Positions 34,421-46,045 of a stretch of 53,037 nucleotides of DNA are shown piece by piece (within the stretch, counting starts at the first letter, position 1; each line of letters opens with the position of its first letter). The DNA lies in the UHGV virus genome UHGV-0150124. One strand, given 5' to 3'. A program made the translations under genes and the position numbers. This stretch comes from a virus. The notes below the pieces were generated by a model, which searched no databases, had not been told where the DNA came from, and was given only the letters and a program-made list of their open reading frames with translations.

Positions 34421-34732
34421 AAAAACCACCCCGATTATTTTTGATTCTCTGTTTCGTTCAGCCTTTCGGCGTGTCCGGCCCTTAGCCAATGTTCTAAGCA
34501 TTCGTTGCACTCGTTACAGCCTCCTTTCTTCGTGCTGCATACATTGCACATTGCACGCATAACGCTTTCTCGTTCATAGTCGTCATGCCATTGGTAATCA
34601 TCAAAAGACATAATGCTCTCTCCTTTTCAGGTGATTTCTACGCATTTCAGCGCTGCCGGATTTTTAAAGAGCATTTTGTTTGCTTGAAGTATACAAAATG
34701 GATATGCCATAACAAGGTGAAAAGCGCCATTA

Positions 34733-34748
34733 TGTGATACGTATCACA
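34733..34748. promoter_or_regulatory. CRP-consensus palindrome TGTGATACGTATCACA
   Basis: Perfect TGTGA-N6-TCACA within a fully symmetric 14-bp palindrome, in the gap between methylase and ninG. Confidence 0.4.
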
Positions 34749-34770
34749 CAGTGACGCCATTTTGTAAACT

Positions 34771-35535
34771 TCAGTCCGGCAAAACACGGTTAAGCGTAGT
34801 CCGCGTGATGGCCCTGTCGTTAGCCAGGAATACAGCTCGTGCGAAGCCGCGCGGCGTTAGTGAGCGGATCATCTTAGTGCGCTTCGACTTTCCGCCTAAC
34901 TTCGCGTGCTGCTTACTGTCTTCCCATTCATCCGGCATTGGTACAGGCCGGAATAGCGGCTGCTTAAATCCATTACCACACCAAATACATGTTTTCTTCG
35001 TGTAGGCATCGCGGTCGGCAATGTATTCCGGGAAAGCAGGATGTTTGTCATCTTCAGGCAGGTAGCCACCGTAAACGCAAGGATTGAAGATAAAATCCGG
35101 TTTACGCCATAACGTTGACAGTGCGCCAACTGGATTTTCCACCATCCACGGCACGTTATACATATTCGCCAGTTTTTCTACAATTTTTGCGTTATACGCC
35201 GCCTTTACCTGGAAGCTAGGATCTTTTTTCCGTTTATCAGCGAACCAACGAGCGCCTGATACGGCAAGATCATCACACGGAGGAAAGCCCAAGATAATGT
35301 CAGGCTCTGGATAAACAGACAATTCAGGGGAGAACATTACCAGGAAATGGCTGTCAATCCATACGTTAACATATTCAATATTTGGATGAATTATTTTTAC
35401 CCCGTCATAATCCCCGTGATTAGCGCCGTCATAGTTGAAGCAATAGCATTTATAACCAGCTTCCGCCCAATCTTTAACGGCGTACCCGCTTCCGTCGTAC
35501 AGCGACCAGATAACCCAATTTCTAAGCCCGCTCAT
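34771..35535 (-). CDS. Putative DNA cytosine methyltransferase-like protein
   Basis: 254 aa; GFPPC (Pro-Cys) and MVENPVG (ENV-like) motifs; unusually short for a C5-MTase. Confidence 0.45.
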   Translation of the reverse strand: MSGLRNWVIWSLYDGSGYAVKDWAEAGYKCYCFNYDGANHGDYDGVKIIHPNIEYVNVWIDSHFLVMFSPELSVYPEPDIILGFPPCDDLAVSGARWFADKRKKDPSFQVKAAYNAKIVEKLANMYNVPWMVENPVGALSTLWRKPDFIFNPCVYGGYLPEDDKHPAFPEYIADRDAYTKKTCIWCGNGFKQPLFRPVPMPDEWEDSKQHAKLGGKSKRTKMIRSLTPRGFARAVFLANDRAITRTTLNRVLPD

Positions 35536-36035
35536 TTTCTACCCTCAAACGTGAAATAGCGGCGCATGATGATAGTAATCACCGTTACAGCCGCCATTTT
35601 TGAGATGAATTGCATAGCTGATATTTCCGGCATGAATGCCATAAACGATAGCGTCGGAAAAATTAACGCATCACCAATGGCGGACGCTATATTTGCAGGC
35701 CATCGTTTAGAATCAAAGTCACCAGGTAAAACCCGGTAAACGCAGCCAGAAATAAGCGCACCGGAAACAACCGCAACGAATGACGCGATCGCCACCATTC
35801 CGGCGTCGTAATTTATCAGCACCGTGATTGCGCCAGCGGCGGCGCATGTTGTAGCCGACCATTTAAGGCCGCCGTCATATAACAGAAAATCACGAATCAT
35901 CATATTGACACACACGGCGGCTACCGTGGTGATCGGAATTACCCACGGGCCACAGTGGTTAACAATAAGATTGATGATCACGAAAACGGCGACATAAATG
36001 CAGGCTAATAACCTGTCAATTGCCACCCTCTTCAT
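35532..36035 (-). CDS. Integral membrane protein (several TM helices)
   Basis: 167 aa, hydrophobic throughout. Confidence 0.35.
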   Translation of the reverse strand: MKRVAIDRLLACIYVAVFVIINLIVNHCGPWVIPITTVAAVCVNMMIRDFLLYDGGLKWSATTCAAAGAITVLINYDAGMVAIASFVAVVSGALISGCVYRVLPGDFDSKRWPANIASAIGDALIFPTLSFMAFMPEISAMQFISKMAAVTVITIIMRRYFTFEGRK

Positions 36036-36354
36036 TTAGCTCTCCCTCCCGATCCGCTAATATCTGTTCGGCCTTAAGCGCGTTATAAGCAATAAGGTCT
36101 ATAAGAGTGTCGAGCGGATCAGTTCCATTAGCGAGAATAGCCCCTAAGCGCGCTTCCTTGAGGCAAATCATTAGATCCCATACATCAAGTGGGGTTAAAT
36201 TCGCATTCATCTTAGCGTTGAAAATAGCCGCTATTTTTGGCGCTGATTTTTCTTCTTTTCGATCGTATCCGTTTGTTTCCCCTCTCGCCTCAATAGTTTC
36301 AGCCGCAAGTCTTAGCAATTCAGCCGCTTTACTCATTTTCTGCACCTCTTGCAT
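36016..36354 (-). CDS. Hypothetical protein
   Basis: 112-aa ORF between the two methylase genes. Confidence 0.4.
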   Translation of the reverse strand: MQEVQKMSKAAELLRLAAETIEARGETNGYDRKEEKSAPKIAAIFNAKMNANLTPLDVWDLMICLKEARLGAILANGTDPLDTLIDLIAYNALKAEQILADREGELNEEGGN

Positions 36355-36868
36355 ATAGCTCTTTACGTGTTATCTGCGTGAAAATACATTCATGTCTGCA
36401 TCGTGGATGCCAGATCAAGAACAAGCTCCCCTTATTGTTCCCGCTTACTGGTTTCCCTGTTGCAGCATTGATAAACGCCAGCCGCCCGCCCGTGATTAAT
36501 CGGCATTCGTTTGCCGTCTCCACGCCGTTCATAAACCAGCTAACAGAAATGTCAGCGGGCAATAGCATTACACAGCCAATGTGATTTCGTTGATGTTCAA
36601 GCGCCGCCTTATCAACGAATGGCCCCGGATTAGAATATGGCGGATTCATCCAGACATACTCACCAGGCATCGCCACCGCACCCCACGGATAATGAAGCGT
36701 GTCCATTTCTTCGGTTATATATCGCGGGATTAATGCGTTTGCCTTGTTTGCCGCCACATCCGCGACGAATTCGAATTCCCGATCCATTCCTCTAAAAACT
36801 GGTTTTGGCGTTTGCCATAAGTCTTTTATTTCTTTCGGCGTATGGCTGCCGCCGTAATCATTTTTCAT
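36329..36868 (-). CDS. DNA N6-adenine methyltransferase (phage Dam-like)
   Basis: 179 aa; catalytic NPPY motif in VWMNPPYSNPGPF. Confidence 0.7.
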   Translation of the reverse strand: MKNDYGGSHTPKEIKDLWQTPKPVFRGMDREFEFVADVAANKANALIPRYITEEMDTLHYPWGAVAMPGEYVWMNPPYSNPGPFVDKAALEHQRNHIGCVMLLPADISVSWFMNGVETANECRLITGGRLAFINAATGKPVSGNNKGSLFLIWHPRCRHECIFTQITRKELYARGAENE

Positions 36869-36877
36869 TACGCCCCC

Positions 36878-37159
36878 TTAGAAATAATCCTGTTCCGTTC
36901 CCCAGCGGTTATTCAGATACCCCACCAACCACACAAAACGCTCAATACTGATTAGCGGGGCGACCTTGCGATAATGCTTATCTAATATCAGCCGCGTGGC
37001 TTTATCGCTGTATCCGTTCTTTTCTACCTCCGCCTTGCAGGCCGAAAGCGCGGCGCGGGCGGCAGTCTTTACGGCGTTAAATTGCGGCTCTGACAGGTTA
37101 AATAAAGCCATTTTATAAATCATCAGTAGAATCAGCGAAAAAGAACCCAACAAATACAC
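36878..37159 (-). CDS. Hypothetical protein
   Basis: 93-aa ORF. Confidence 0.35.
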   Translation of the reverse strand: MYLLGSFSLILLMIYKMALFNLSEPQFNAVKTAARAALSACKAEVEKNGYSDKATRLILDKHYRKVAPLISIERFVWLVGYLNNRWGTEQDYF

Positions 37160-37355
37160 TAACAGTAATAATAACCATTAATATATAAAGCGCATCATCA
37201 GGTGATGGAATTTCTGGTGGCTCCCATGTAACAAACGACACACCACATAAAATTCCAATAAAAACCGTAGCTATACATGAGAATACGAAAAAAGAACAAA
37301 ATAACCATCCAATAATGAAGTCAATAATTGCACGCATTATTTTAAACGTCCTCAA
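37113..37355 (-). CDS. Small membrane protein
   Basis: 80 aa, two hydrophobic segments. Confidence 0.35.
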   Translation of the reverse strand: MRTFKIMRAIIDFIIGWLFCSFFVFSCIATVFIGILCGVSFVTWEPPEIPSPDDALYILMVIITVSVFVGFFFADSTDDL

Positions 37356-37545
37356 TTACCCCGCCTTTCACGCGCTCTTTAATATCCCATACGTGAGGCT
37401 TGCATATTTCTTGATAGTAGTGATCCAGCCTGCTGCCGAAATACCATTTGCCATCCATATAAAAATAAACGCCAGAAAAATTTCCTGGCGCTGCCTTTGT
37501 TGCTGCTTCTGGAATTTTCCATTCCATGTAATGTTTAAATTTCAT
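37342..37545 (-). CDS. Hypothetical protein
   Basis: 67-aa ORF. Confidence 0.35.
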   Translation of the reverse strand: MKFKHYMEWKIPEAATKAAPGNFSGVYFYMDGKWYFGSRLDHYYQEICKPHVWDIKERVKGGVIEDV

Positions 37546-42343: not shown

Positions 42344-42991
42344 TTATGGCAGGTTTACGATCTTCGCATCAACCACCACGCCTATAATTTTTGATTCTGG
42401 ATTCATAGGGATTGGCGGATACAGCGGATTGAGCGAACGTAAAAGCCTTTGACCTCCATCAATAATCAACTGTTTAAACGTCGGTATCTGCCCTTCCTCA
42501 AGCTGGGCTATAACCAGTTTGCCGTCAATAGCTGGCGCGTGCGGGTCCACAAGTATCATCGTCCCCGCCGGGATGCTCAACCCCTGCGGCGCGTTCATTG
42601 ATTCACCTTTGGCAACCAGCCAGTAACTGTCATCTGAACAAATAACGCTAGTCGTAACGTGTCGTAATGCTGAACGCCTTGCGTCATCCATATTGTTTAC
42701 TGTGTCCTTCCAGTCAATAACCGGGTAACTACCTAAATCACGCGGCGGCACGGCCTGAAGTGTATTAGAAACAGAATCATCAATGACCATGCCATCATGT
42801 GTAACAGTAAACTGCCGACGACCAAGCTCGCGCATAATCCGCGCAATATCTTCAAGATTTGGCTCTCGGCGACCGTTCAGCCAGTGTGACAGGCCGCCTT
42901 TAGTTATCCCCATACGATCCGCGAGCGAATCCTGGCTCATGCCCTGCGCCCGCATGAGCTGCTTTGCTAAGTCATACCATTTTGTTTTCAT
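42344..42991 (-). CDS. cI: cI-type repressor (HTH plus LexA/S24 autopeptidase domain)
   Basis: 215 aa; N-terminal HTH (QDSLADRMGITKGGLSHWLNG); C-terminal S24-like domain with GESM serine and downstream Lys. Confidence 0.85.
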   Translation of the reverse strand: MKTKWYDLAKQLMRAQGMSQDSLADRMGITKGGLSHWLNGRREPNLEDIARIMRELGRRQFTVTHDGMVIDDSVSNTLQAVPPRDLGSYPVIDWKDTVNNMDDARRSALRHVTTSVICSDDSYWLVAKGESMNAPQGLSIPAGTMILVDPHAPAIDGKLVIAQLEEGQIPTFKQLIIDGGQRLLRSLNPLYPPIPMNPESKIIGVVVDAKIVNLP

Positions 42992-44604: not shown

Positions 44605-44989
44605 CCAATCACGATCCGCAAAAATCCAAAATTACCCACAAAACAACCTCACCAGCGAGCTAAATAGCATGTGGTGCTAACTTGCTTGCCTTTTTGCGAT
44701 TAGCTCGTTAGAGAGCGTTACAGAGAGGATTTTAAAATGGACGGTAAACGCATGTTCGCCCTGGCTTTCGCGATCGCGATGGCTATCGCTGTTAACGTCG
44801 CCTTGTTCGGCGGTTTGTATCTGCTAGTTAATCCATAACCTACCTACCAGTCTGTAAATCGAAAATTAGCCACCTGATAGCGCCTCTAGCGCAATAAGAC
44901 ACTGCAACCTGTAAACGGGTTACGCGGTGGGATTTTTGCGTTGTAGCTCGTCTGAGGCGTTATATAGAAAATTAATAAAGGAGGTATAT

Positions 44990-46045
44990 ATGATTGCTAC
45001 TTATCATATGAAACTCAATTGTAAGGACACGCAATTACTGTCTGTTAATAATCTGGTTTCTGAACTTGAAATTGATAGACTTAAATCATTTGTTAAATAC
45101 TCTGATCTTTACGGATTTGAGGAATACAAGGATTTTATTGTTGATGGCGATGATGTGTATATCACACCCATAACGTTTATTAGATTCGTTACACCTGGTA
45201 AATATAGACATTATGAATATAATGAAAAATGGGTTAAGCCAGTTATTGAATCTTGTGGATTAGTTGACTTGCAAGATATCTTTAATAAATATTCAAATAA
45301 CACCAAAAAAGATAGTCCTTATGCTTATAATTATATTTTATGGTGTAATAATTATGTTGAAACGAGTGATACTCCTGGGCGATGTTCTGTGTATGTGTCA
45401 AAAGAAGATGCTGAAAAGTACAAAAAATGGTTGTTCGTCACTCGCGGAGTATCAATAGAAAAACTATGGGTAAGGTTGTTCCATTCAAGCGATATTGCAG
45501 ATCCAGATGCGTTTTTAACTGAACACCTCAATAATGATGAGTTTACCATTGATTTAAATATTGAATATTTTATAGTTAAAACAAATTATGGGTATGAAAG
45601 ATATATTAGCGATAAGATGGCAGAAAAGTATCATGCATGGGGTGAAAATAAAGGTCTTAATAATAATTTTGAATGCGGGAATTATAACGACATAGAAAAC
45701 TTTATTGAATTAAAAAGCGATAAAAATGTAATTGAAGAAATAAAAAAGGAGTGCGACTCGAAATTATCAGAAATGAGAGATAATTGTAAAAATATGATTA
45801 GGAAGCGTTATGAACATGCTGGCTTAACTATGTATGAAAAACTAAAAGGAGTTAAATTAATAAGGCAATATCCTGTTGATGTTGCTGGCAATAAGTATTT
45901 TATTGATGGCTACGATCCTGTGAATAACGTTGCTGTAGAAATTGATGAGTCACATCACAAACGGCAAGTAAAAAGCGATGCGATAAGACAAAAACGCATT
46001 GAAGATTATTTGGGGTGCAAGTTTTTCCGTTGTGCTATATCCTAA
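44990..46045 (+). CDS. AT-rich moron: protein with C-terminal DUF559 / Vsr-like PD-(D/E)xK nuclease-type domain
   Basis: ATG at 44990 after AAGGAGG; visibly AT-rich; C-terminus LIRQYPVDVAGNKYFIDGYDPVNNVAVEIDESHHKRQVKSDAIRQKRIEDYLGCKFFRC fits the DUF559 pattern. Confidence 0.5.
   Translation: MIATYHMKLNCKDTQLLSVNNLVSELEIDRLKSFVKYSDLYGFEEYKDFIVDGDDVYITPITFIRFVTPGKYRHYEYNEKWVKPVIESCGLVDLQDIFNKYSNNTKKDSPYAYNYILWCNNYVETSDTPGRCSVYVSKEDAEKYKKWLFVTRGVSIEKLWVRLFHSSDIADPDAFLTEHLNNDEFTIDLNIEYFIVKTNYGYERYISDKMAEKYHAWGENKGLNNNFECGNYNDIENFIELKSDKNVIEEIKKECDSKLSEMRDNCKNMIRKRYEHAGLTMYEKLKGVKLIRQYPVDVAGNKYFIDGYDPVNNVAVEIDESHHKRQVKSDAIRQKRIEDYLGCKFFRCAIS

Follow-up and report, generated by a model that had tools for sequence, protein, structure and literature searches.

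Two predicted DNA methyltransferases and a divergent VUT/YhhQ-like membrane protein in an accessory block of a mEp021-like temperate coliphage

The virus genome UHGV-0150124, a stretch of 53,037 nt (hereafter the window), carries four overlapping open reading frames (ORFs) on the minus strand at positions 34771–36868, in which two predicted DNA methyltransferases flank a multi-pass membrane protein and a 112-aa protein. The window represents nearly the whole genome of a temperate coliphage that resembles mEp021 and falls into the 'mEpimmI' group (PMC11893012), its DNA being 86–92% identical to that of mEp021, mEp010, mEp013, mEp044, mEp515, mEp554 and MagusPhagus. The membrane protein, which a preliminary description of this region had called unexplained, can be placed as a divergent VUT/COG1738 (YhhQ-family) transporter homologue on the basis of transitive homology and fold. 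Taken as a whole, the four genes are best explained as an accessory block that combines two ordinary methylases with an unrelated, diverged transporter, and we consider this explanation likely to be correct.

The membrane protein (167 aa; 35532..36035, minus strand) gave no Pfam match at E ≤ 0.1 and none in NCBIfam, and its pairwise BLASTP comparison with E. coli YhhQ was insignificant (E 0.25). Its family became apparent through its relatives, 12 close ones of which were retrieved by a word-indexed search and 157 by an exhaustive HMMER search. PF02592 (Vut_1) was matched by 27 of 34 aligned relatives and by all 10 of the longer ones, and relatives from isolated phages at 30–35% identity carry the label 'VUT family protein'. 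When the family profile was aligned to E. coli YhhQ with hhalign, the alignment covered the whole protein (142 columns, probability 74.7%, E 2.6e-5). The predicted structure consisted of six helices (mean predicted local distance difference test score, pLDDT, 89.7) with a fold resembling the S-component of energy-coupling factor (ECF) transporters, and a fold search of BFVD returned only weak matches, among them a protein with the name 'putative vitamin uptake transporter'. The multi-pass character noted earlier was thus recovered in the model, and the protein is no longer without a family. E. coli YhhQ, the preQ0/preQ1 'queuosine precursor transporter' of COG1738, shares with it the six-helix S-component-like fold and the RD, N-x6-D and K motifs, whereas the window protein is about 55 aa shorter and too diverged for a direct Pfam match. 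Homologues of YhhQ in phages were already known (PMC6884629, PMC7544227).

Six of the eight polar helix residues conserved in the family were retained in the window protein (N22, R48, D49, N115, D122 and K146). The other two positions, which are membrane-embedded acidic residues in the family (D44 and D96), are occupied by N44 and S96, and the clade as a whole shows D44N and D96S/A. Each of the two positions varies in a minority of the family, but only the clade of the window, comprising its close relatives together with P0129, P0134 and P0140, lacks both acidic residues; an aspartate was found at both positions in all 44 sampled distant viral relatives.

The genomic setting of these distant relatives was analysed in 44 fetched viral loci that encode transporter relatives at 31–37% identity. 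A gene of the TGT superfamily neighboured the transporter in 42 of them. In 37 loci, this was a gene for a ~245-aa DpdA-like protein of phrog_887 ('queuine tRNA-ribosyltransferase') that directly adjoined the transporter gene in the same orientation, in most cases with an overlap; in three, a DpdA-like gene lay within 450 nt, in two the neighbour was a fusion of TGT (PF01702) and DUF6884, and the last two were cut by contig ends. The ~245-aa partner had no Pfam match and owes its identity to PHROGs. In the two fusions (L069 163–1440 and L070 40–906), the PF01702 score of 25.2 bits fell just under the cut-off, which suggests another DpdA-type variant coupled to the transporter family. A preQ0 synthesis cluster had been guessed as the neighbourhood of these transporters; instead, Pfam identified recombination and replication genes (AAA_24, DUF669, a Cas4-like exonuclease, a helicase and RusA). 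DpdA inserts 7-deazaguanine into DNA.

In the sampled loci, the DpdA gene more commonly preceded the transporter gene. The reverse order was found in the Drexlerviridae phage vB_EcoD_Opt-719, in Pectobacterium phage PEAT2 and in locus L089, with an overlap of 4 nt in the latter. In P0136, the closest DpdA-linked relative found (36% identity), the DpdA-like ORF begins 4 nt before the stop of the transporter gene, a geometry equal to that of the junction between the transporter and cytosine methyltransferase genes in the window. In the window, the cytosine-C5 (C5) methylase fills the slot after the transporter; in some relatives, this slot belongs to DpdA. Phage yhhQ genes were included in a 2019 survey of phage deazaguanine genes (PMC6884629), and in phage CAjan, yhhQ lies in the DpdA cluster, its deletion leaving preQ0 modification unaffected in rich medium (PMC7544227). 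Whereas such phage YhhQ/VUT proteins (CAjan yhhQ, PEAT2 gp18) have DpdA as their partner, methyltransferase genes flank the transporter gene in the window.

No DpdA or TGT gene was found in the window, either by six-frame hmmsearch (--max) with a profile of the DpdA-like neighbours (best E 2.2) or by phmmer with a TGT-type neighbour (best E 2.1), and DpdA/TGT was likewise absent from 38 mEp021-like loci. No Que, preQ0-synthesis or TGT genes came up when the block, the genes around it, the other large early-region ORFs and part of the small ORFs were scanned with Pfam and PHROGs, and the annotations of the block region in mEp021 and MagusPhagus list no genes of the 7-deazaguanine pathway. Rfam detected no riboswitch or other RNA in the window, and no preQ1 riboswitch in or near the block. 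The four-gene block is not a DpdA system.

Two further members of the DpdA-less clade had no DpdA within 6 kb. One of them, P0134, is encoded two genes from a PF01555 (N6_N4) methyltransferase, with two phrog_2510 genes nearby; the gene for the other, P0140, has a DNA ligase gene on one side and an endolysin-like gene on the other, and no common partner emerged for the clade. Of 62 loci outside the mEp021 group that encode the family of the C5 enzyme, about 60 were free of a VUT gene in the vicinity. In three exceptions, the VUT gene was at least 5 kb away from the C5 gene, accompanied in two of them by a DpdA-like gene, while the third was cut by the locus end.

The C5 enzyme itself (254 aa; 34771..35535, minus strand) had no Pfam match at E ≤ 0.1 and no match in NCBIfam or among PDB sequences. 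Against PF00145, whose gathering score is 22, the family members P0016 (24.7 bits) and P0082 (28.5 bits) passed over motifs I–IV only, while the window protein stayed below the threshold and the Dcm of phage KarlJaspers reached only 11.1 bits. The protein belongs to phrog_757 (E 5.4e-88), and its predicted fold is that of a class I methyltransferase, closest to C5 DNA methyltransferases. Its family comprises 2388 homologues in the protein database, mostly of 227–236 aa, and occurs in 1482 phage records. Across 25 aligned members, DGSG (motif I, residues 14–17), FPPC (C87) and ENP (E133) were invariant; WR (143–144), K180/K181 and the C-terminal RSLTPRG (224–230) were also conserved. Searches of the PDB with single sequences and profiles returned nothing useful beyond a weak DNMT3B alignment over motifs I–IV, and the family profile aligned with DNMT3B in motifs I and IV. 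Only about 70 residues separate the WRKPD and RSLTP stretches of the protein. By eye, RSLTPRGFARAV resembles motif X of DNMT3 enzymes; an hhalign comparison with E. coli Dcm covered motif IV only.

The closest link to an experimentally studied enzyme is a 236-aa 'Dcm-like C5 cytosine methyltransferase' of phage KarlJaspers (Bas06, MZ501090), which is 61% identical over 232 residues (E 9e-102). The phage K42 (Hzau42) is a strain 95% identical to KarlJaspers, and its Dcm was reported in a preprint to form 5-methylcytosine (5mC) on the multicopy single-stranded DNA (msDNA) of retron Ec86, as detected by liquid chromatography–mass spectrometry (10.1101/2023.08.16.553469). In the same study, 5mC formation depended on a CCWGG site and a C82A/E128A/K175A/K176A mutant was inactive (10.1101/2023.08.16.553469). 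K42 Dcm has also been shown to trigger retron Ec86. Residues C82, E128, K175 and K176 of KarlJaspers Dcm align with C87, E133, K180 and K181 of the window protein.

As judged from its sequence, the 254-aa protein is a compact DNMT3-like cytosine-C5 methyltransferase of the 'phage Dcm' family. The cytosine methyltransferase-like nature that had been read from its PC and ENP motifs is upheld by their invariance (C87, E133), by the similarity to KarlJaspers Dcm and by the methyltransferase fold. The protein is indeed short, but not atypically so, as had been supposed: since the KarlJaspers/K42 relative is active and the family typically spans 227–236 aa, this length is normal for an active family. 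Both the window enzyme and KarlJaspers Dcm show the compact DNMT3-like architecture and are stand-alone phage genes. They differ in that the window protein exceeds KarlJaspers Dcm by 18 aa and ends in a C-terminal tail modelled with low confidence, and in that it is encoded by a temperate mEpimmI phage, translationally coupled to a VUT gene, whereas KarlJaspers is a virulent Drexlerviridae phage. Formation of 5mC by the window enzyme would be expected from the K42 homologue, and its target site and any triggering of the retron may be proposed by analogy with KarlJaspers Dcm only.

The gene at the other end of the block (36329..36868, minus strand) encodes a 179-aa protein with the catalytic (D/N)PPY motif in the form NPPY (WMNPPYSNPGPF). 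It matched PF05869 over profile positions 1–167 of 169 (E 1.4e-51; 174.9 bits against a cut-off of 28.1) and the NCBIfam equivalog model TIGR01712 (141.3 bits against 97.05), as well as phrog_111 and the 'orphan methyltransferase' model of PADLOC (E 1.3e-24). On this evidence, the protein is a predicted phage mini-Dam, an N6-adenine DNA methyltransferase, in agreement with the Dam-like assignment made earlier. Of 50,697 phage records, 1758 contain relatives of this protein; Stx-converting phages are among them, with a Dam that is 42% identical. The window enzyme resembles the phage mini-Dam enzymes (Stx-phage Dam and Haemophilus phage HP1 Dam) in its full-length match to both models, its NPPY motif, its length of ~180 aa and the lack of a separate target-recognition domain and of a partner nuclease. 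It differs from the Stx-phage enzymes in that the identity is only 42%, and the GATC specificity of the family would apply to it by analogy. The Dam enzymes of HP1, VT-2 and 933W lead to the expectation of GATC as the target of this family. GATC was found 244 times in the window against 258 expected; it is thus undepleted, which is compatible with GATC methylation and undiagnostic of it.

No restriction endonuclease gene was found beside the methyltransferase genes, whose neighbours are an ipe-like ORF, the DUF6378 and VUT genes, ninF, ninG and rusA, and PADLOC returned nothing for the DUF6378, transporter and C5 genes. The four-gene block is not a restriction-modification system, and the term 'orphan' that had been applied to the two methylases is apt because the block holds no restriction endonuclease partner.

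The remaining gene (36016..36354, minus strand) encodes the 112-aa protein, whose ORF had been listed in the preliminary description and is real. It matched PF19905 (DUF6378; E 4.5e-9, 36.9 bits, cut-off 27.1) as well as phrog_474 and phrog_9871, and had no match among PDB sequences. Relatives of this protein occur in 204 phage records, mostly of Dhillonvirus, whose Dam and C5 methyltransferase genes are found close by; no functional literature on DUF6378 was found. In four viral contigs of 44–45 kb (L130 and L134–L136), members of the Dam and C5 families are encoded within a few kb of DUF6378. The mEp021 version is 165 aa long with a longer C-terminal tail, the window gene being about 54 codons shorter. 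The DUF6378 protein is a conserved companion in the block.

The four ORFs lie exactly at the positions first reported for them, with successive overlaps of 26, 20 and 4 nt: 26 nt are shared by the end of the Dam gene and the DUF6378 gene, 20 nt by the latter and the beginning of the transporter gene, and the junction between the transporter and C5 methyltransferase genes is a 4-nt ATGA overlap. All four genes are real and under strong purifying selection, with median pairwise ratios of nonsynonymous to synonymous substitution rates (dN/dS) against relatives of 0.065 for Dam, 0.15 for DUF6378, 0.055 for the membrane protein and 0.086 for the C5 enzyme. The block is present in seven isolated phages, in 35 of 5426 complete E. 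coli genomes (~0.6%) and in more than 35 IMG/VR contigs, and mEp021-like elements are common in gut viromes. On contig L083, the same four genes occur in the same order with proteins that are only 54–64% identical in amino acid sequence. Equivalents in phages of the mEp021 group (gp30–gp33 in mEp021, MH706966; compared also in mEp010, mEp013, mEp044, mEp515, mEp554 and MagusPhagus) form the same block at the same operon position with 84–98% protein identity. In mEp021, these are annotated as putative Dam, hypothetical protein, putative membrane protein and putative DNA cytosine methyltransferase; neither the records of the group nor the 2025 paper on mEpimmI phages (PMC11893012) gives the membrane protein a family. 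A natural deletion variant (IMGVR_UViG_3300045988_049781) has the N-terminus of Dam fused to the C-terminal half of the transporter; its DUF6378 gene is gone and its C5 methyltransferase intact. The fusion product (P0130, 115 aa; L090 5648–6001) is recorded on seven contigs.

The block is situated in the N-antiterminated operon, which runs from the cI repressor gene (42344–42991) through erf, ssb-like and abc2-like genes, the block, ninF, ninG and rusA to Q; its assignment to the early region was therefore correct. The lysis genes of the mEp021-like phage are located downstream of Q, away from the block. Directly after the C5 stop codon, a hairpin with a U-tract (~34720..34759, minus strand) probably represents an intrinsic terminator that closes the four-gene block. 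It was not flagged by a simple consensus terminator scan; RNA folding of 34612–34775 gave −51.3 kcal/mol (z = −5.6 against shuffles), and the mEp021 record has a terminator (TERM_4) annotated at the same relative place. A second terminator-like hairpin, with an 11-pair stem and a T-run (37468..37492, minus strand), was detected by the consensus scan upstream of the segment made up of two small ORFs and the block, again at a position matching a terminator of mEp021 (TERM_3). A promoter scan provided no evidence of a separate promoter within the block. In mEpimmI phages, nutR2 lies just downstream of the cytosine methyltransferase gene (PMC11893012). The terminators and the placement of nutR2 support the operon layout. 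A small stem-loop, GCGCUGAAAUGCG (~34641–34656, minus strand), which is situated past the terminator that follows the C5 gene and ahead of the ninF-like ORF, is boxB-like and agrees with the placement of nutR2 in the mEpimmI paper (PMC11893012). The two small ORFs (36878–37355, minus strand) lie directly upstream of Dam in the same terminator-bounded segment. One encodes a protein of 93 aa (phrog_303) that is homologous to the 'inducer of pleiotropic effects', ipe, of mEp021, the other an 80-aa hydrophobic protein of phrog_14059, and both may belong to the same accessory unit as the block.

In the explanation that we favour, the block would be a lineage-specific accessory unit of four translationally coupled genes, expressed from the N-antiterminated early operon, whose two stand-alone methyltransferases would act on the replicating DNA of the phage itself. 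The mini-Dam, of the HP1/VT-2/Stx-phage type, would produce N6-methyladenine (m6A), most likely at GATC, and the C5 enzyme would transfer the methyl group of S-adenosylmethionine (SAM) via C87 to yield 5mC, most likely at CCWGG as in the KarlJaspers homologue. The phage enzymes would thereby copy two solitary methylases of the host. Packaged DNA would be fully methylated and should resist enzymes that cut unmethylated sites containing GATC or CCWGG; protection from restriction by the two methylases is thus a reasonable inference. A possible side effect would be sensing by defences that are triggered by methylation, such as retron Ec86.

The membrane protein would stand outside the methylation chemistry as a diverged uptake protein of the VUT/YhhQ family. 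Its DpdA-coupled phage relatives are thought to import 7-deazapurine bases of the preQ0 type, and the strong selection on the transporter makes it most likely that uptake of a small heterocyclic base continues. As a leading guess, the substrate may be a queuosine-precursor-like compound that serves tRNA modification in the host. DNA-modification genes may have been exchanged at this position of the early region, with a transporter that was once associated with DpdA kept for its own sake. An exchange of modification genes beside a retained transporter is the most economical reading of the locus, in which both the history and the substrate are reconstructed. We do not think that the transporter is tied to the methylases, since most of the C5 family occurs without VUT, the K42 enzyme works alone and the natural variant keeps C5.

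Several points weigh against this explanation. The proposed target sites are carried over from related enzymes, with an identity of 42% for Dam and 61% for Dcm, and the membrane protein itself stays under every Pfam threshold, with an hhalign probability to YhhQ of only 74.7%. The loss of the acidic residues may have changed the substrate, and even transport activity. The tight coupling, and a four-gene unit kept down to 54% identity, also fit a functional link between the genes. Moreover, the selective benefit is not obvious, because the host itself provides YhhQ and Dam and, in the case of many E. coli strains, Dcm as well.

In one alternative, the four genes would constitute a single hypermodification pathway, in which an imported precursor is attached by the C5-fold enzyme, possibly together with DUF6378, so that the product is not plain 5mC. 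The inheritance of four overlapping genes as a block even at 54–64% identity, the coupling of the same transporter family to a DNA base-exchange enzyme in other phages, and the position of the C5 enzyme, which is that of DpdA next to the transporter, would all be in keeping with such a pathway. It is nevertheless very unlikely, given that the C5 family has 1482 phage records and is unaccompanied by VUT in about 60 of the 62 other viral loci, that the 61%-identical KarlJaspers/K42 homologue alone gives 5mC in E. coli, and that the natural variant retains C5 despite the loss of the transporter N-terminus, DUF6378 and most of Dam. The activity of the K42 homologue bears in the same way on the proposal that the 254-aa enzyme uses carboxy-SAM from host CmoA to form 5-carboxymethylcytosine, like phage CmoX, which is barely credible: 5mC was produced in E. 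coli MG1655, a host that carries cmoA, the family motif is FPPC, in contrast to the SPPC that defines CmoX candidates, and neither cmoA nor a ligase gene lies nearby. DNMT3 enzymes carry an arginine in the motif X-type stretch and use SAM, which also speaks against a CmoX-like activity; Arg224 may be equivalent to Asn304 of M.HhaI, although the hhalign comparison with E. coli Dcm aligned motif IV only.

Two other possibilities concern the membrane protein. It might no longer transport and might have been co-opted for superinfection exclusion or for a holin-like or membrane-depolarising role, as could be read from the loss of two intramembrane acidic residues and of the DpdA partner in its clade and from the location of the clade member P0140 directly upstream of an endolysin-like gene. 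We judge this unlikely, because six other family-invariant polar residues are retained, the dN/dS of 0.055 is the lowest among the four genes, all six helices of an S-component-like bundle are present in the predicted fold and the lysis genes of the phage are elsewhere, downstream of Q. At L087 6001–6955 (on a 128-kb Logan contig of ERR10205929), the gene of P0140 is followed by the endolysin-like gene (phrog_90) with an 11-nt overlap, an unusual arrangement that might point to an action on the membrane instead of transport. Alternatively, the DpdA-less transporter branch (the window protein, P0129, P0134 and P0140) might have switched its substrate, for example to the import of a base or cofactor for methylation or nucleotide supply. 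In two of three sampled contexts of this branch, the transporter is encoded within two genes of a DNA methyltransferase. We regard this as quite improbable; if true, the block would record a swap from DpdA to a Dcm-like enzyme beside a retained, repurposed transporter.

Two further observations were made in the window. Many 6-bp palindromes are nearly absent, with one TCCGGA against 22.7 expected and no GGCGCC, CCGCGG, CAGCTG, AAGCTT or CTGCAG against 8–18 expected for each. CTAG, GGCC and GTAC are depleted, while GATC, CCGG, TCGA and CCWGG are undepleted. The pattern fits restriction-site avoidance for sites that are not covered by the methylases of the phage or the host. In addition, an island of 31% GC between the replication initiator gene and an exonuclease-like gene contains a 372-aa ORF (44927–46045, plus strand), only the C-terminal ~60 residues of which gave matches (Pfam DUF559; PADLOC 'type II methyl-directed restriction enzyme', E 1.4e-8). 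The ORF could not be assigned to any PHROG family, and mEp044 shares its C-terminal domain only. Its product could be a defence nuclease carried by the prophage, encoded in a variable moron slot, and would be notable in a phage that methylates its DNA.

Both methylases are of an ordinary kind and have annotations in public records already, and the current understanding of phage methylases is unchanged by these results. What they add concerns the other labels in those records: in mEp021-like phages and prophages, the 'putative membrane protein' gains a family name, and their 'putative cytosine methyltransferase' is tied to an experimentally characterised phage Dcm. This link predicts 5mC at CCWGG and m6A at GATC on the phage DNA even when it is derived from dam− dcm− hosts, and also that these temperate phages would be sensitive to defences that sense methylation, such as retron Ec86. 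The DpdA-less transporter, whose substrate and role we infer, is a modest new point, and it offers a small, clean case for the role of phage YhhQ homologues without a 7-deazaguanine DNA pathway, a question left by an earlier survey (PMC6884629).

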